Of a DNA stretch of 39,577 bases, positions 6,066-39,577 are shown in pieces. The position numbers and the translations under genes are program-made. The stretch is from Escherichia phage vB_EcoP_IMEP24: the sequence record MZ648215.1, one strand, 5' to 3'. Under the pieces are notes generated by a model. That model was given only the letters and a program-made list of their open reading frames with translations. It made no database searches and was not told where the DNA came from. Position 1 is the first letter of the stretch, and each line of letters starts with the position of its first letter.

Positions 6066-6083
6066 ACTATCACTATAGGATTA
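6061..6083 (+). promoter_or_regulatory. Phage RNAP promoter (phi1.1-like)
   Basis: tctaaactatcactatagga, +1 G at 6078. Confidence 0.8.
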
Positions 6084-6124
6084 GACTCAAGGTCATGACT
6101 CAAAGTCGTGGCCTTCATGATTAA
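6081..6124 (+). other. RNase III-type processing hairpin (R1.1-like)
   Basis: TTAGACTCAAGGTCAT..GTGGCCTTCATGATTAA; 10-bp stem with G.U wobbles; same element recurs at 13401 and 36152. Confidence 0.5.
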
Positions 6125-6154
6125 CCCTATAACCTAAACAACTGGAGCTACAAC

Positions 6155-13386: not shown

Positions 13387-13403
13387 CTATCACTTTAGGA
13401 TAG
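13381..13403 (+). promoter_or_regulatory. Phage RNAP promoter, variant
   Basis: gcttaactatcactttagga; A to T at -3; +1 G at 13398. Confidence 0.55.
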
Positions 13404-13440
13404 ACTCAAGGTCATTCACACCGAGTGGCCTTTATGATTA
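13401..13440 (+). other. RNase III-type processing hairpin
   Basis: TAGACTCAAGGTCAT..GTGGCCTTTATGATTA; same box as 6081 and 36152. Confidence 0.5.
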
Positions 13441-16446: not shown

Positions 16447-17305
16447 GAAGAAGATAGCTCTGGTTCTAGATGGTGACTATCTGGTATTCTCTTCTATGGC
16501 TGCTGCCGAGGACGAGACAGACTGGGGTGATGACATCTGGACCCTTATCTGCGACCACGAGAAGGCTCGTCGTATCCTTGATAACACCATCGCTGAAATC
16601 GTTAAGAAGCGCAAGGCGTGGAAAGACGCTAAGATTGTGATGTGCTTTACTGACGATAACAACTGGCGTAAGGATGTTCTGCCTACCTATAAGGCCAACC
16701 GTAAAGGTTCTCGCAAGCCTGTAGGTTACAAGAAGTTCGTAGCCGAAGTGATGGCTGACCCACGGTTCAACAGCTTCCTGCGTCCTACGCTTGAGGGTGA
16801 TGACTGTATGGGTATCATCGGGACCAGACCTCAGATTGTAGGCTGTGACCATGCGGTGCTGGTGTCCTGCGATAAGGACTTCAAGACCATCCCGAACTGT
16901 GAGTTCTTCTGGTTAACTACTGGTGAAATCCTGAGTCATACGACTGCTGAGGCAGACTACTGGCACATGGAGCAAACCATCAAGGGTGACACTACAGATG
17001 GCTACGGTGGCATTCCTGGGATGGGTGAGGATACCACTCGTGCATTCCTTGACGAGCCGTACTACTTCGTGCAGGAGAGCCGTGAGCTTAAGACTGGTAA
17101 GAACAAAGGCCAGATTAAGACTGAGTGGAAGAAGTATCCGAAGCGTGAAGACATGACGCTGTGGGACTGCATGGTGACTCTGGCTGAGAAAGCTGGGATG
17201 ACTGAAGAAGAACTTCTGGTCCAAGCTCAGGTCGCTCGTATTTGTCGAGCCTCCGACTACGACCCTAAGTCCAAGGAGGTCATCCTGTGGACACCATCCA
17301 TGTAA
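16439..17305 (+). CDS. 5'-3' exonuclease (T7 gene 6)
   Basis: LVLDGDYLVF, CDHxKARxIL, KANRK, KPVGY, LEGDDxMGxI, SCDKDFKTIPNCxF, TIKGDxTDGY, GKNKGQ, TLWDC match T7 gp6; start ATG 16439 with RBS gaggagga. Confidence 0.94.
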   Translation: MSEKKIALVLDGDYLVFSSMAAAEDETDWGDDIWTLICDHEKARRILDNTIAEIVKKRKAWKDAKIVMCFTDDNNWRKDVLPTYKANRKGSRKPVGYKKFVAEVMADPRFNSFLRPTLEGDDCMGIIGTRPQIVGCDHAVLVSCDKDFKTIPNCEFFWLTTGEILSHTTAEADYWHMEQTIKGDTTDGYGGIPGMGEDTTRAFLDEPYYFVQESRELKTGKNKGQIKTEWKKYPKREDMTLWDCMVTLAEKAGMTEEELLVQAQVARICRASDYDPKSKEVILWTPSM

Positions 17306-17431
17306 TCTACTGGGCCGGACTTCTGGCCCTTTACTGCATGTACAAGTGGTTCGGGTCGAACAACCGTCCTAAACACTGAGTCTAACCGATAGTCATATCC
17401 TATCAATCCAACAGTCATCCATAGGTGAAAC

Positions 17432-17454
17432 ACTAAACTATCACTATAGGGACT
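17432..17454 (+). promoter_or_regulatory. Phage RNAP promoter (class III type, phi6.5-like)
   Basis: cactaaactatcactatagggac; +1 G at 17449. Confidence 0.85.
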
Positions 17455-17515
17455 TTAGGACCTAAGATATGACTATAAGATAGACTTTAGTCTTAACTTA
17501 AAGAGGAGATTCAAG

Positions 17516-21239: not shown

Positions 21240-21262
21240 ACTAAACTATCACTATAGGGAGA
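21240..21262 (+). promoter_or_regulatory. Phage RNAP promoter (phi10-like, full consensus)
   Basis: ctaaactatcactatagggaga; +1 G at 21257; transcript 5' end can form AGGGA/TCCCT stem. Confidence 0.9.
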
Positions 21263-22539: not shown

Positions 22540-22545
22540 TTGAAA

Positions 22546-22582
22546 CCCCTTGGGTGCCTTCGGGTGCTTGAGGGGTTTTTTT
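22546..22582 (+). terminator. Rho-independent terminator (Tphi equivalent)
   Basis: CCCCTTGGGTGCC-TTCG-GGTGCTTGAGGGG stem (13 bp incl. G.U pairs, tetraloop) followed by T7 run; resembles T7 Tphi. Confidence 0.9.
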
Positions 22583-23406: not shown

Positions 23407-25764
23407 ATGCCGCTTATCACACAAAGCATAAAAAATCTTAAAGGTGGCATTAGCCAGCAGCCTGATATACTGAGGTTCTCAGACCAAGGCGAGGCACAGG
23501 TTAACTGCTGGTCATCCGAGAGTGATGGCCTCCAGAAGCGCCCACCTACAGTCTTCAAGCGACGTCTTAACATCGACGTTGGGAGTAACCCTAAGTTCCA
23601 CCTGATTAACCGTGACGAGCATGAGCAGTATTACATCGTGTTCAATGGGTCCAACATTCAGGTAGTTGACTTGAGTGGCAATCAATACTCAGTGTCAGGT
23701 GCGGTAGACTACGTTAAGTCCTCCAACCCACGAGATGACATCCGTGTCGTTACCGTGGCAGACTATACGTTCGTCGTTAACCGTAAGGTTGTCGTCAAAG
23801 GTGGAAGCGAGAAGTCACACTCTGGTTATAACCGCAAAGCACGAGCTTTAATTAACCTGCGTGGTGGACAGTATGGTCGAACCCTTAAGGTGGGAATCAA
23901 CGGTGGAGTTAAGGTCTCGCATAAGCTACCAGCAGGTAATGATGCCGAGAATGACCCTCCTAAGGTGGATGCTCAGGCCATCGGTGCAGCTCTGAGAGAC
24001 CTTCTTGTTGCTGCCTATCCTACCTTCACGTTTGACCTTGGGTCTGGCTTCCTGCTAATCACAGCTCCTTCAGGGACAGACATTAACTCAGTGGAGACGG
24101 AGGATGGCTACGCTAACCAGCTAATAAGCCCAGTCCTAGACACTGTGCAGACAATCTCTAAACTACCTCTTGCAGCTCCTAATGGGTATATCATTAAGAT
24201 TCAAGGTGAGACAAACAGTAGCGCCGATGAATACTACGTGATGTATGACTCCAACACTAAGACGTGGAAGGAGACAGTGGAGCCGGGAGTTGTCACTGGG
24301 TTCGATGTCACCACAATGCCACATGCTCTGGTCAGACAGTCTGATGGCTCCTTTGAGTTCAAGACTCTGGATTGGTCCAAGCGTGGTGCTGGTAACGATG
24401 ACACAAACCCTATGCCTAGCTTCGTGGATGCTGCGATTAATGATGTGTTCTTCTACAGGAACAGACTTGGGTTCTTGTCAGGTGAGAACGTGATCATGAG
24501 CCGTTCAGCTAGCTACTTTGCGTTCTTCCCTAAGAGTGTGGCGACACTGAGCGATGATGACCCTATTGATGTAGCTGTAAGTCACCCTCGTATCTCAATC
24601 CTTAAGTACGCCGTTCCGTTTAGCGAGCAGCTACTACTTTGGTCGGATGAGGTTCAGTTCGTGATGACAAGCTCTGGGGTCCTTACCTCGAAGTCTATCC
24701 AGCTTGATGTAGGCTCAGAGTTTGCCTTAGGTGATAATGCCAGACCGTTCGCTGTAGGACGCTCAGTCTTCTTCTCAGCTCCTCGTGGGTCATTCACCAG
24801 CATTAAGCGATACTTCGCTGTAGCTGATGTGTCTGATGTGAAGGATGCCGATGATACAACTGGTCATGTATTGTCCTACATCCCTAACGGGGTGTTTGAT
24901 ATTCAAGGTACAGGGACTGAGAACTACATCTGCGTCAACTCTACAGGTGCATACAACAGAATCTACATCTACAAGTTCTTGTTTAAGGACGGCGTACAGC
25001 TTCAAGCCTCTTGGTCGCACTGGGAGTTCCCTATAGCTGATAAGATTCTGGCGTCTGCGTCGATTGGCTCTACCATGTTCATTGTTCGTCAGCACCAAGG
25101 TGGTGTGGACCTTGAGCACCTTAAGTTCATCAAGGAGGCAACTGACTTTCCATTAGAGCCGTATAGACTCCACGTTGACTCCAAGGTGTCTATGGTAATA
25201 CCAATTGGCTCATATAATGCTGACACCTATAAGACTACGGTTGACATTGGTGCTGCTTATGGTGGCAACGCTCCGTCTCCCGGTCGGTACTATCTGATTG
25301 ACAGTCAGGGTGCTTATTTGGACCTTGGGGAATTAACCAGTATATCTACTGTGGTTGTCCTCAACGGCGATTGGTCAGGACGCACAGTGTTCATCGGAAG
25401 GGCGTATCTGATGTCCTACAAGTTCTCACGGTTCCTGATTAAGATTGAAGACGATAGTGGTACTCAGTCTGAAGACACTGGCCGTCTACAGCTTCGTCGG
25501 GCTTGGGTAAACTACAAAGACACTGGCGCTCTGAGACTCATTGTCAGAAACGGTGAGCGGGAGTTCGTGAACACCTTTAACGGGTACACCCTTGGTCAGC
25601 AAACCATCGGGACTACCAACATTGGGGATGGACAATATCGCTTCGCTATGAATGGCAACGCATTAACCACGAGTCTAACCTTAGAGTCAGACTATCCTAC
25701 CCCAGTGTCCATCGTTGGGTGTGGCTGGGAGGCGTCATACGCTAAGAAAGCTCGTTCCGTCTAA
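23407..25764 (+). CDS. Tail tubular protein B (T7 gene 12)
   Basis: QSIKNLKGGISQQPDILR, WSSExxGLQKRPP, HLINRDEHEQYY, VTVADYTFVVNR, GRLQLRRAWVNY, GCGWE; collinear with T7 gp12. Confidence 0.97.
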   Translation: MPLITQSIKNLKGGISQQPDILRFSDQGEAQVNCWSSESDGLQKRPPTVFKRRLNIDVGSNPKFHLINRDEHEQYYIVFNGSNIQVVDLSGNQYSVSGAVDYVKSSNPRDDIRVVTVADYTFVVNRKVVVKGGSEKSHSGYNRKARALINLRGGQYGRTLKVGINGGVKVSHKLPAGNDAENDPPKVDAQAIGAALRDLLVAAYPTFTFDLGSGFLLITAPSGTDINSVETEDGYANQLISPVLDTVQTISKLPLAAPNGYIIKIQGETNSSADEYYVMYDSNTKTWKETVEPGVVTGFDVTTMPHALVRQSDGSFEFKTLDWSKRGAGNDDTNPMPSFVDAAINDVFFYRNRLGFLSGENVIMSRSASYFAFFPKSVATLSDDDPIDVAVSHPRISILKYAVPFSEQLLLWSDEVQFVMTSSGVLTSKSIQLDVGSEFALGDNARPFAVGRSVFFSAPRGSFTSIKRYFAVADVSDVKDADDTTGHVLSYIPNGVFDIQGTGTENYICVNSTGAYNRIYIYKFLFKDGVQLQASWSHWEFPIADKILASASIGSTMFIVRQHQGGVDLEHLKFIKEATDFPLEPYRLHVDSKVSMVIPIGSYNADTYKTTVDIGAAYGGNAPSPGRYYLIDSQGAYLDLGELTSISTVVVLNGDWSGRTVFIGRAYLMSYKFSRFLIKIEDDSGTQSEDTGRLQLRRAWVNYKDTGALRLIVRNGEREFVNTFNGYTLGQQTIGTTNIGDGQYRFAMNGNALTTSLTLESDYPTPVSIVGCGWEASYAKKARSV

Positions 25765-25788
25765 CTTATTGAAGGGCCTATAGATTTA

Positions 25789-25811
25789 CCTTAACTATCA
25801 CTATAGGGACT
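25789..25811 (+). promoter_or_regulatory. Phage RNAP promoter (phi13-like), inside a 12-bp inverted repeat
   Basis: ccttaactatcactatagggac; +1 G at 25806; flanked by AAGGGCCTATAG (25772-25783) and CTATAGGCCCTT (25810-25821). Confidence 0.85.
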
Positions 25812-25840
25812 ATAGGCCCTTAAGGTTATAAGGAGACTTT

Positions 25841-26320
25841 ATGTATATTCGTAAGGCTACAGATGTAGACGTTTGGTACGCTGCTGCACAACTTACAGAT
25901 GACGACTTAAAGGAGTGTAAAGCCAACTATGGGACCACTGAAGGTCTCACTGAAAGGCTGAAAGCACACCTAACGTCTTCATCTGTGGTTTTAACTAATG
26001 CTGTTGGAGAGATTTACGCCTATGGTGGTAACCAAGGTGACAACGTTTGGTTCCTGACGACCAGAATGACCGAGCGTCTCACACCTGAAGGTAAGCGAGA
26101 GTTCCGTGAGAGAATCATGGAGTATCGTGACAAGATGATGGAGGACTATCCGGTCCTATGGAACTACGTATGGGAAGGCAGTGAAGCACACATTAGGTTT
26201 CTCAAGTCAATAGGCGCTAAGTTCCACGACGATAAGTGGACCAGAAGCCCAGTGACTGGAGAAGTATTCATTCTATTCACTATCTCTAAGGAGGACGTAT
26301 GTGTGAACCAATTTCAATAG
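25841..26320 (+). CDS. Internal virion protein A (gene 13 position)
   Basis: ORF between tail tubular B and gp14 homolog; positional call; RBS aaggag. Confidence 0.6.
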   Translation: MYIRKATDVDVWYAAAQLTDDDLKECKANYGTTEGLTERLKAHLTSSSVVLTNAVGEIYAYGGNQGDNVWFLTTRMTERLTPEGKREFRERIMEYRDKMMEDYPVLWNYVWEGSEAHIRFLKSIGAKFHDDKWTRSPVTGEVFILFTISKEDVCVNQFQ

Positions 26321-26897: not shown

Positions 26898-29180
26898 ATG
26901 GCTAGTAATATTGAATCAGCTCTTGCTAATCGGACTATGGGTCGTGGCAGAGCGCCGGGTAAAACTATCGCCGTCAACTATCAAGCAGCAAACGTTCAGG
27001 CTCCCACTGGGGACTCCGGGCTGGCTCGTGCATTAACTAACTTCGTTGAGTCTGGGACAGGATTGTACAAGCAGTTCAAGGACGATGAGAAGACCAGAGC
27101 TGACGAGCGGTCTAACGAGATTATCCGTAAACTGACACCTCAGCAAAGACGTGAGGCTATCCAGAACGGCACATTGCTGTATCAGGACGACCCTTACGCT
27201 ATGGAAGCACTTCGAGTCAAGACTGGTCGTAATGCTGCCTTTGCTGTAGACGACGAGATTAACGTTAAGATTCAGAACGGTGAGTTCCGCACACGTCAGG
27301 AAATGGAAGAATATCGCCACCAGCGACTTCAGGATGCCGCTAAGTCCTATGCTGAAGAGGCGGGTATTAACCCTACCGACGAGTTCTTCCAGCGTGGCTT
27401 CAACGATAACATCACGGACCGAAACATCGCTATCTACGGGTCCTTCAATAAGTATTTCAGCAAGCAGTCTGAAGAGACAGCAATGTTGAACACTCGTATT
27501 GAGCTGAACTCGTTCCTTAACGATGGGGACCTAATGCGTTCGCCTGAGTCTGGAAAGACCTTCATGGCCTACCTTCGGGATGGACTGACGACTGCTGCTA
27601 TACCTTCGGACCAGAGAGCACGAGAGGTCATCACCCAGACGGTCCGTGACGCAATCCAGAAGTCAGGAGGCTCAAACTTCCTACAGCAAGTCCGTGGCGA
27701 GCGTATCACCCTTAACGGTGTTGACGCTACCATCGAAGAGATTGTAGGACCTGACGTCTTCAATGCTGCTATGGTTGAGGCCCAAGGTACTGAGTATAAA
27801 CTGGTGGCTAAGTATCAGGAAGACTTGGCGTTAGGCGTTCAGTCTGCGATTCTTCAGGACGACCCAACCATCGGTCTTGCCCAGATTCAGAAACTCAAGG
27901 AGCAGAACAACCTGCTTCAGCCGGGTGAAGAACTCACGCCTCAGCGCCAGATGCTTATTAATGCCGAAGCGAGCTTACTGGAAGCGGTCAAGCGTAAGTC
28001 TGCTGAACAGGCGAAGGAGAACACTAAGTTAATCCAGACTCAGAACAAGCAACTGGTAATAGACCAAGTGTATCAGCGACGTCTGGCTGGTGACAACGTG
28101 TCCACCAACTATGAGGACCTTCCGGTCTCTGACGCTACAGGTGAGTTCAAGCGTTCAGATATGAACAACTATGCGTCTGCCAAGCTACAGCAGATTGACC
28201 AGATGGACATCCCTGAGGCTGCTAAAGATGCTCAGAAGGTGGCATTGTTAAGAGCTGACACTAACAACGGTCCGTTCCGTAATGCCTTCCAGACGCTGAC
28301 TCAGGACGCTGCTGGGGAGTGGCAAGCTGCGGTCATCCGTGGACAGTACGACCCAGACAAGATGAAACGCTTCGAGTCTCTTCGTCGTGCCTACACTCAG
28401 GACCCTTCAAGTTTTGCTTCGCTATATCCAGACCAAGCTCAGTTGTTCTCTACGTTCGACCAGATGGACAAGATGGGTCTGGACCCTCAGACGATGATTG
28501 AAGCTGATAAGCAAGCTGCAAGTCAAAGCCGTGAGATGCGCATGGAGTCAGACAAGGCGTGGCAGGAGTTGAAGAACGACTCCAAGAACACCCAGTTGTC
28601 TCGCCTCCCAACGTCTCTGGACTCAAGTGCTCGTAAGGTCTGGGACTCATGGTACTATCGTACAGGTAACGCTGACGCTGCAACGCAGCAGACTCAACGC
28701 TGGCTGAATGAGAACACCGTAACGTTCCAGTCTGAAGGTTCTGACGGTAAGTCAATAGGCATGGTGTCTAAGCACCAGCTTATGGTCGGGGATAACCCAG
28801 AGTCGTGGCAGGTGGGTCGAGACATCATCGACACCGCTCGTCAGCAGCTCATTAAGGCCAACCCTTGGGTAGTGAACTCTCAGTTGTCCGTTGTTGAACA
28901 GAACGGCTCTATCTTCCTCCAAGACGCTACGGGGACTATTCGTATTAGATACGATAAAGAACTTGTAGGTAAACTCTACCGCGAACAACAGCAGAAGGCA
29001 CAAGATGCCGCATATGCTCAGGCAGAACGTGACGCTAACAAGCGAGCGCGTATCGTCGGGACTAAAGCTGCTGGTGACAAACGTCGAGCTGACCGAGAGG
29101 CCAACATCGAGAAGCGCGGAGGGATGTACAATGACGTCTCATTGGAGGGTATCGCAAACGTACTAATCGGTAAGGAGTAA
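26898..29180 (+). CDS. Internal virion protein C (T7 gene 15)
   Basis: ADERSNEIIRKLTPxQRREAxxNGTLLYQDDPYAMEALRVKTGRNAA, EMEEYRH, GEFKxSDMxNYA, IRxRYDKEL match T7 gp15. Confidence 0.95.
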   Translation: MASNIESALANRTMGRGRAPGKTIAVNYQAANVQAPTGDSGLARALTNFVESGTGLYKQFKDDEKTRADERSNEIIRKLTPQQRREAIQNGTLLYQDDPYAMEALRVKTGRNAAFAVDDEINVKIQNGEFRTRQEMEEYRHQRLQDAAKSYAEEAGINPTDEFFQRGFNDNITDRNIAIYGSFNKYFSKQSEETAMLNTRIELNSFLNDGDLMRSPESGKTFMAYLRDGLTTAAIPSDQRAREVITQTVRDAIQKSGGSNFLQQVRGERITLNGVDATIEEIVGPDVFNAAMVEAQGTEYKLVAKYQEDLALGVQSAILQDDPTIGLAQIQKLKEQNNLLQPGEELTPQRQMLINAEASLLEAVKRKSAEQAKENTKLIQTQNKQLVIDQVYQRRLAGDNVSTNYEDLPVSDATGEFKRSDMNNYASAKLQQIDQMDIPEAAKDAQKVALLRADTNNGPFRNAFQTLTQDAAGEWQAAVIRGQYDPDKMKRFESLRRAYTQDPSSFASLYPDQAQLFSTFDQMDKMGLDPQTMIEADKQAASQSREMRMESDKAWQELKNDSKNTQLSRLPTSLDSSARKVWDSWYYRTGNADAATQQTQRWLNENTVTFQSEGSDGKSIGMVSKHQLMVGDNPESWQVGRDIIDTARQQLIKANPWVVNSQLSVVEQNGSIFLQDATGTIRIRYDKELVGKLYREQQQKAQDAAYAQAERDANKRARIVGTKAAGDKRRADREANIEKRGGMYNDVSLEGIANVLIGKE

Positions 29181-35888: not shown

Positions 35889-36148
35889 CGCAGATGGACT
35901 TAGAGAAGTTCCTCTTAATGCTAGATACTGAACGTGCTCGACTCATGCTGCAAGACCTGCGGGATGACACTAAGCGTTCACCTCAGCTCTACAACGCCAT
36001 TGAGAAGCTACTTGCTCGTCACAACTTTGTGTTAAGCAAGGTGTCTGTGGACGAGAAGACGCTGGCTGATATGGAGGCCCTGAACGCAGAGTACGATAAG
36101 GTGCTTTCAGCGACTGAGGATAATGACACCGGGTATGGCGTTCAATAA
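35885..36148 (+). CDS. Terminase small subunit (T7 gene 18)
   Basis: FLxMLDT, RRSPQLYNAIxKLLxRH match T7 gp18; ATG overlaps holin stop. Confidence 0.85.
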   Translation: MTQMDLEKFLLMLDTERARLMLQDLRDDTKRSPQLYNAIEKLLARHNFVLSKVSVDEKTLADMEALNAEYDKVLSATEDNDTGYGVQ

Positions 36149-36151
36149 GTG

Positions 36152-36190
36152 TTAGACTCAAGGTCATCGTCAGGTGGCCTTTATGATTAA
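36152..36190 (+). other. RNase III-type processing hairpin (R18.5-like)
   Basis: TTAGACTCAAGGTCAT..GGTGGCCTTTATGATTAA; third copy of the box. Confidence 0.5.
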
Positions 36191-36204
36191 CATTAGGAGG
36201 GTTT

Positions 36205-38794: not shown

Positions 38795-38817
38795 ACTTAA
38801 CTATCACTATAGGGAAG
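38795..38817 (+). promoter_or_regulatory. Phage RNAP promoter (right-end phiOR-like)
   Basis: gacttaactatcactatagggaag; +1 G at 38812. Confidence 0.85.
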
Positions 38818-39189: not shown

Positions 39190-39230
39190 CTAAGGTCAGT
39201 TCATAGCTGACGCTACTCTACTGACCTTAG
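39190..39230. repeat. Perfect 10-bp inverted repeat (CTAAGGTCAG / CTGACCTTAG) with 21-nt loop near right end
   Basis: Read directly from sequence; lies between gene 19.5 and the right terminal repeat. Confidence 0.8.
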
Positions 39231-39393: not shown

Positions 39394-39577
39394 TCTCACA
39401 CTTCAAGAACCTCAAGTCTCCCCCATAGGCCCTCTTTCAGTCCAGACCAAGGGTGGCCCACCTCCAGTCTATCATAGGGTTGGACCGGCTGTCAATATCT
39501 CAAGTCAACGATTGGTCATGACTATCGGTGGTGGTGGTGACGATAGGTTGGGACTATTGGTCTGTCTCTGAGTCTTT
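39394..39577. repeat. Right direct terminal repeat (184 bp)
   Basis: Identical to 1..184. Confidence 0.9.

Follow-up and report, generated by a model that had tools for sequence, protein, structure and literature searches.

A predicted RNA hairpin around the phi13 promoter of a K1F/EcoDS1-type phage, a probable counterpart of the R13 sites of T7 and T3

The stretch of DNA analysed (the window, 39,577 bp; Escherichia phage vB_EcoP_IMEP24, MZ648215.1) is a complete T7-like phage genome. Its two ends carry identical sequence, the motif at 30–41 being found again at 39423–39434 (an offset of 39393), and the direct terminal repeats are about 184 bp long (1–184 and approximately 39394–39577), a length estimated from this single recurring motif. 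Their presence at both ends shows the window to be a linear genome in its entirety. The closest relatives belong to the genus Kayfunavirus (K1F, EcoDS1, vB_EcoP_F and many Salmonella Typhi phages), and the phage itself is of the K1F/EcoDS1 type. Eleven copies of the phage promoter are present, with the consensus CTWAACTATCACTATAGG.

Gene 12, for tail tubular protein B (23407–25764, + strand; assigned from the open reading frame and the annotation of relatives), and gene 13 (25841–26320) are separated by a gap of 76 nt, and this entire intergenic region is identical in the window, EcoDS1 and K1F. It contains the phi13 promoter (CCTTAACTATCACTATAGGGACT, 25789–25811, + strand, positions −17 to +6), with transcription starting at G25806. 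The sequence fits the consensus of the 11 promoter copies of the window, and is annotated as 'promoter phi13' in EcoDS1 (EU734172, 25367–25389). Further downstream are the Shine-Dalgarno sequence of gene 13 (AAGGAG, 25830–25835) and its ATG start codon (25841–25843), both on the + strand.

The first-pass annotation had placed a perfect 12 bp inverted repeat around this promoter, and a repeat search found it at exactly the same positions. The 5′ arm (AAGGGCCTATAG, 25772–25783, + strand) spans −34 to −23 when numbered from the start of phi13 transcription, and the 3′ arm (CTATAGGCCCTT, 25810–25821, + strand) forms nt +5 to +16 of transcripts initiating at phi13; the two are 12 nt each, 100% complementary, and separated by a spacer of 26 nt. 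The identity of the bracketed promoter is borne out by the EcoDS1 annotation, but the bracketing is not complete. The 3′ arm begins at +5 and so overlaps the last two promoter positions, meaning that the promoter is not strictly confined to the loop. Most of it does lie in the 26 nt apical loop (25784–25809, + strand), within which a 5 bp inner helix (CCUUA/UAGGG) is predicted. The 3′ arm is supplied by a tandem repeat: ACTATAGG occurs twice on the + strand with a period of 9 nt (25800–25807 and 25809–25816; overall 25800–25816), so that CACTATAGG at 25799 and GACTATAGG at 25808 are tandem copies of the promoter core, and it is the second copy (25809–25816) that provides the arm.

Transcripts entering this region from upstream can be traced to read-through. 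Gene 10 is followed by a T-phi-type terminator (22542–22579, + strand; a 17 bp stem and then a T-run), and there are no phage promoters between phi10 (CACTATAGG at 21250) and phi13. Genes 11 and 12 thus depend entirely on T-phi read-through for their transcription, and the resulting RNA reaches the phi13 hairpin. T7 is arranged in the same way, its genes 11 and 12 relying on T-phi read-through (PMC5592923). A scan of 25400–26100 for sigma-70-like promoters and terminators detected nothing, and the element itself lacks the form of a G+C-rich hairpin followed by a U-run, since the 3′ arm is followed by AAGGUUAUAAGG.

RNA covering the two arms and the spacer (25772–25821, 50 nt) is predicted to fold at −20.4 kcal/mol (z = −3.76), a value equalled by none of 200 shuffled sequences. 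A longer fold of 67 nt (−22.4 kcal/mol, z = −3.31) includes a lower stem, predicted to form between UAACU (25762–25766, + strand), which contains the gene 12 stop codon TAA (25762–25764), and GGUUA (25824–25828, + strand). Between the upper and lower stems is an asymmetric internal loop, UAUUG (25767–25771) opposite AA (25822–25823). The predicted fold agrees with the earlier proposal that read-through RNA could form a hairpin having the promoter sequence as its loop. It had also been proposed that transcripts initiating at 25806 carry only the 3′ arm, and this holds as well: a start at G25806 excludes the 5′ arm, and the RNA from +1 to +40 of phi13 is predicted to be unstructured (−6.8 kcal/mol, z = +0.27). 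Among the 11 promoters of the window, a strong helix spans the start site only at phi13 (24 predicted pairs), the other ten showing 1–17 weak pairs across it.

Two further structures were considered and rejected. A hairpin at the 5′ terminus of phi13-started RNA (GGGACUAUAGGCCC) has only 3 pairs (−3.6 kcal/mol) and is no better than shuffled sequences. In the minimum-energy fold of read-through RNA an outer helix (UUCC/GGAG) would hide the ribosome binding site (RBS) of gene 13, but duplex energies speak against it, as pairing of the last 30 nt of gene 12 with the RBS region was no better than that of random 30-mers in 24 of 25 variants. A search of the whole window against Rfam gave no matches at the gathering thresholds.

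An inverted repeat of this size is, by itself, only mildly unlikely on a genome-wide scale. The window holds one perfect inverted repeat with arms of 12 bp or more and a loop no longer than 60 nt, compared with a mean of 0.105 per genome in 200 first-order Markov simulations, and about 10% of the simulated genomes contained such a repeat. Chance complementarity maintained without selection is nevertheless very improbable as an explanation, because the arms fit exactly about a single one of the 11 promoters, within a gap of 76 nt, and because the repeat is conserved, K1F, EcoDS1 and many relatives from metagenomes having it in identical form. A second perfect repeat, of 11 bp, encloses a phi6.5-type promoter, so that two of the three perfect repeats of at least 11 bp in the genome bracket promoters.

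Conservation of the element was examined in gene 12–13 regions gathered in three ways (by gp13, by the gp12 C-terminus and by the start of gene 13), which gave 22 distinct Kayfunavirus-type sequences; the 20 that were still distinct over the first 72 nt were aligned. The perfect 12 bp repeat is peculiar to the K1F/EcoDS1/window type. A 9 bp core (GGCCTATAG/CTATAGGCC) is nearly invariant across the 20 variants, while the third pair from the base (G25774–C25819) is present in seven and replaced by U-C or A-C in the other 13. The 3′ arm is invariant except in one variant (L112), which has an A-C mismatch in the core; another (L117) has lost the top pair, and a third (L014) carries CCUGUAG, a change that is G-U compatible on the sense strand only. 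In the lower stem, 97% of cells are paired over the 20 variants, with U-G alternating with U-A. Compensatory changes were absent: among the 20 distinct variants no pair was altered on both sides, counts being the same as for shuffles, and of two candidate structures counted over these variants neither showed any. Covariation within the genus is thus uninformative, not negative.

The arms could also be an evolutionary by-product with little function of their own. An ancestral T7-type arm, complementary to the promoter, together with a 9 bp tandem duplication of the promoter core would create an inverted repeat automatically, and this could then persist through linkage to a strongly selected promoter and RBS. 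The tandem repeat at 25800–25807 and 25809–25816 is what such a history would leave behind, no compensatory changes are seen within the genus, and the whole intergenic region is highly conserved (mean column identity of 92%). However, the 5′ arm, although it belongs to neither the promoter nor the coding sequence, is more conserved than the upstream half of the promoter and the flanks. Bases of the loop next to the 5′ arm vary while the core GGCCTATAG stays, and the 9 bp core is unchanged even where the gp12 C-terminus is merely 62–65% identical. It is also unchanged in three IMG/VR relatives (L016, L022 and L045) whose loop has another upstream promoter half, AAACTATTACACCCTCACTATAGGGA or AAATATTTAACACTCACTATAGGGA, between the same arms. 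In these, the altered promoter half suggests a different polymerase specificity set in the same hairpin frame. The conservation at 62–65% gp12 identity and the retention of the arms despite a replaced promoter half argue for selection on the arms. Start sites within hairpins also recur in lineages with unrelated arm sequences, and an origin as a mere by-product is accordingly judged improbable.

The same region was compared across Studiervirinae using T7 and 80 loci collected by way of the gp12 C-terminus, blind to the presence of a hairpin. Nearly every distinct sequence from these loci has its phi13 start enclosed by a stable hairpin, and this was seen in the T3-like, K11/KP32-like and gh-1-like groups, in others, and in T7. 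Some of these hairpins are known. T3 has an annotated 'RNase III recognition site R13' (25443–25480) that overlaps phi13 (25457–25479), and the record of phiYeO3-12 lists a 'putative RNase III site R13'. The cut in T7 R13, which we take to be at 27281, would be at about +8 if numbered from phi13, where transcription starts at 27274. In T7, R13 is described as a site that RNase cleaves weakly (PMC5592923). The arm sequences are wholly different among the T7, T3, K11-like and gh-1-like groups, and the upstream arm changes together with the promoter in T7/T3-type lineages; across genera, compensatory changes were found at two of eight consensus pairs.

The element of the window occupies the same position as R13 of T7, T3 and phiYeO3-12, over phi13 in the stretch that runs from the stop codon of gene 12 to gene 13, and shares its logic: the start site is inside the hairpin, which can hence be formed only by read-through RNA from genes 11–12. 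The stabilities over comparable lengths are similar (−27.2 kcal/mol for T7, about −21 to −25 for T3 and −27.8 for the window), and T3-type phages and Kayfunavirus alike have a closing helix, UAAC/GUUA, that includes the stop codon. The architecture is different. In T7, T3 and phiYeO3-12 the promoter itself (about −12 to +6) is the 3′ arm and pairs with a complementary upstream sequence, several of the pairs being G-U, whereas in the window the promoter lies unpaired in the 26 nt loop, and a near-copy of its core further downstream (+5 to +16) serves as the 3′ arm. Cleavage, moreover, is documented for T7 R13 as a weak site, while the site in the window is putative. If the promoter as 3′ arm is taken as the mark of the R13 class, the window element falls outside it, by architecture and not by position or logic. 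The likeness to T7 R13 put forward in the first-pass annotation therefore stands for the position and for the start site within a hairpin, but does not extend to the layout.

A T7/T3-type pairing can still be read in the sequence of the window, as CCUAUAG (25777–25783) could pair with CUAUAGG (25801–25807) over 7 bp, and the tandem cores suggest that the promoter-in-loop layout was derived from a hairpin of the T7 type when the core of the promoter was duplicated. A related locus (L053; same contig as L004, at about 881–960), with gp13 87% identical, has a T7-type hairpin (GUCCCCUAUGG...CUAUAGGGGAC) and a distinct promoter (GGTACACTATAGGGGAC). The T7-type layout in so close a relative indicates that the two hairpin layouts interconvert within the clade. 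BP12A-like (L091, L104) and PP81-like (L069, L072) sequences were considered as further promoter-in-loop cases and rejected; their folding gave mixed or T7-type structures, and independent recurrences of this layout at phi13 are consequently not claimed.

The alternative raised at the outset, a structure in DNA that modulates promoter use, finds no support. It could take the form of a cruciform or single-stranded hairpin acting on phi13, a site for a dimeric protein, or a replication structure at a secondary origin; fragments containing phi13 are reportedly secondary origins in T7. The 12 pairs in this genome are Watson-Crick without exception, so that the antisense strand of the element folds almost as well as the sense strand (−19.5 and −20.4 kcal/mol), and the DdmABC defence system senses palindromes of T7-like phages, including RNase III sites, as DNA (PMC11707656). 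Against this, a spacer of 26 nt would, from DNA energetics, make extrusion of a cruciform very unfavourable, the 5′ arm (−34 to −23) lies beyond the promoter (−17 to +6), and no sigma-70-like promoter or terminator is present. Across lineages the hairpins depend on G-U pairs, and for that reason fold better on the sense strand: this was the case for 28 of 33 non-Kayfunavirus sequences (−25.0 versus −18.2 kcal/mol) and, with a weaker effect, for 11 of 13 Kayfunavirus sequences, although the sequences in this test are related and the p-values overstate their independence. Changes among the variants point the same way, being G-U compatible on the sense strand only (CCUGUAG in L014, and U-G/U-A in the lower stem). 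A function at the level of DNA is for these reasons held to be quite improbable.

If the hairpin acts as RNA, host RNase III is the likely enzyme to act on it. To look for its sites, eight canonical RNase III sites of T3 were used to build a covariance model (R1). Trained on T3 only, it finds six canonical hairpins in the window, all on the + strand and scoring 28–57 bits (865–923, 1188–1240, 1836–1889, 6076–6129, 13401–13440 and 36147–36195), which share the pattern GACUCAAGGUC...GGCCUUyAUGAUUA. With six canonical copies in its genome, the phage clearly uses the host enzyme. At 25760–25830 the same model gave no match, with E values up to 10 and filters off, and the canonical profile (a 9 bp lower stem, an internal loop, AAGGUC...GGCCUU and the 3′ flank UAUGAUUA) is not seen in the element. 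As a control, the model also misses the annotated R13 of T3 itself, which indicates that R13-class hairpins are non-canonical as a group and that the miss is not peculiar to the window.

Canonical sites of the T7 group (R0.3, R0.5, R1, R1.1, R1.3, R4.7 and R18.5) are, like the window element, intergenic hairpins of the sense strand, and have the same plan, in which an asymmetric internal loop joins the upper stem to a lower one. The window element differs from them in lacking the GACUC...(U/C)AUGAUUA flanks and the long lower stem, and in having a loop of 26 nt as against 3–8 nt. The first four pairs of its upper stem are AAGG (25772–25775) and CCUU (25818–25821), and the same AAGG/CCUU base is found in seven of the 10 annotated T3 sites (R0.3, R0.5, R1.1, R1.3, R4.7, R6.5 and R18.5) and at the canonical window sites at 6089, 13408 and 36160. 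For the RNase III of E. coli, the minimum substrate is about 11 bp, with the distal box about 11 bp from the cut (PMC3867540), and where it cuts a single strand at an internal loop, a stabilising hairpin is left at the 3′ end (PMC3867540; PMC1540722). The helix of 12 bp satisfies this minimum length and, as predicted to stand above an asymmetric internal loop, it fits the dimensions of the enzyme.

The hairpin might form in read-through RNA and yet remain uncut, its role being purely structural, for example as a barrier to 3′ exonucleases after decay downstream, or as an element insulating the messages of genes 12 and 13 from each other. The evidence from folding and conservation is the same as for a processed hairpin, the canonical RNase III model fails to recognise the element, and T7 R13 is itself a weak site (PMC5592923). 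The regular helix, 12 bp here and 9 bp in most variants, is also short compared with the approximately 22 bp for which a dimer of RNase III has room (PMC6212723). On the other hand, the homologous hairpins of T3 and phiYeO3-12 carry RNase III-site annotations and T7 R13 is cut, the stem reaches the minimum of about 11 bp (PMC3867540), and its AAGG/CCUU base is common to canonical sites. An uncut hairpin is thus unlikely, though less so than the other alternatives.

A closer match to the architecture is found at a different promoter. In T3, the stem-loop annotated as RNase III recognition site R6.5 (17135–17206) encloses phi6.5 (17160–17182), with an upper stem of 10 bp and a loop of about 26 nt that holds the promoter, just as the window element has an upper stem of 12 bp and a promoter-bearing loop of 26 nt. 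In both, the upper stem has AAGG...CCUU at its base, and in both the position of the promoter in the loop means that its primary transcript is without the 5′ arm. T3 R6.5 differs in having the full canonical flanks (AAGUGAUAAACUC...UAUGAUUAUUACUU) and a lower stem of 9 bp, whereas the window element has a lower stem of 5 bp and the flanks UAUUG / AAGGUUA, and gives no covariance-model match; the canonical model scores T3 R6.5 at 55 bits, R6.5 being one of the eight sequences on which it was trained. The promoters also differ, phi6.5 in the one case and phi13 in the other. In architecture, then, the window element has the layout of T3 R6.5 and not that of T7 R13.

The window has its own repeat at the corresponding promoter. 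A second perfect inverted repeat, ATAGTCATATC / GATATGACTAT (17389–17399 and 17466–17476; 11 bp with a 66 nt spacer), encloses a phi6.5-type promoter (CACTATAGG at 17442, start at 17449), in parallel with the annotated R6.5 of T3, and the region 17380–17480 folds at −23.1 kcal/mol. EcoDS1 also has the phi6.5-type arms, the 110 nt stretch that was compared ending at the last base of the 3′ arm. A third perfect repeat, CTAAGGTCAGT / ACTGACCTTAG (39190–39200 and 39220–39230; 11 bp with a 19 nt loop), lies near the right end, downstream of a phiOR-type promoter at 38805, and reaches about −24.5 kcal/mol with its flanks. Counting the one at phi13, the genome has only three perfect repeats of 11 bp or more whose loop does not exceed 100 nt (simulated mean of 0.74). 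A curious feature is that the phi6.5-type promoter (17449–17470) and phi13 (25806–25828) share an unusual initially transcribed sequence (GGGACTTTAGGACCTAAG and GGGACTATAGGCCCTTAAG, respectively), transcripts of the remaining promoters beginning with GGA..., GGGAGA or GGGAAG.

Taken together, the element is probably the Kayfunavirus counterpart of R13 of T7 and T3, an RNA-level hairpin of the sense strand that would be cut by RNase III at the base of its helix. Transcripts from phi9, phi10 or further upstream would pass T-phi, carry genes 11 and 12, and continue over phi13. In this read-through RNA the arms would pair to form the 12 bp helix, with an RNA copy of the promoter as its 26 nt loop and, beneath it, the asymmetric internal loop and the 5 bp lower stem that includes the stop codon of gene 12. 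Host RNase III would then cut at the base of the 12 bp helix, on its 3′ side; from the distance rule of about 11 bp and the layout of canonical T3 sites, the cut is expected near 25821–25823. It would leave a gene 11–12 message ending in a protective 3′ hairpin, and release a message for gene 13 onward with a short leader. We infer both the cleavage and its stabilising effect. The Shine-Dalgarno sequence and ATG of gene 13 are 3′ of the hairpin, so they would be kept in both classes of RNA. RNA started at G25806 is without the 5′ arm, so the structure would never form in it and processing would not be needed.

On a more speculative and improbable reading, the position of the promoter in the loop and not in an arm would make the processing hairpin independent of the promoter sequence. 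The specificity of polymerase and promoter could then change without loss of the R13-type hairpin, and a promoter-containing RNA of about 50 nt could also be produced: cuts on both strands could release a hairpin RNA bearing a copy of the promoter, which might have a role of its own, such as that of a decoy for the phage polymerase or of its regulator.

The element is real and conserved, but of an ordinary kind. As an annotation it is missing from the records of K1F and EcoDS1 that were inspected, which have no RNase III-site annotation, and from the best 40 GenBank matches listed; a literature search turned up no openly available paper dealing with Kayfunavirus RNase III sites. The biology is not new, as this kind of element, its position and the likely enzyme have been known since the genome analyses of T7 and T3, and what would be gained, if the interpretation is true, is an annotation that the records of K1F, EcoDS1 and the best 40 listed relatives lack. 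Phages of the K1F/EcoDS1 type serve in phage therapy and engineering, and for genome refactoring it would follow that shifting or swapping phi13 would break the hairpin. The two layouts, with the promoter as an arm or in the loop, offer a natural pair of designs for asking why the phi13 start stays within a hairpin. If the proposed explanation is true, K1F/EcoDS1-type phages would separate the messages of genes 11–12 and of gene 13 onward as T7 and T3 do, by means of a rebuilt hairpin.
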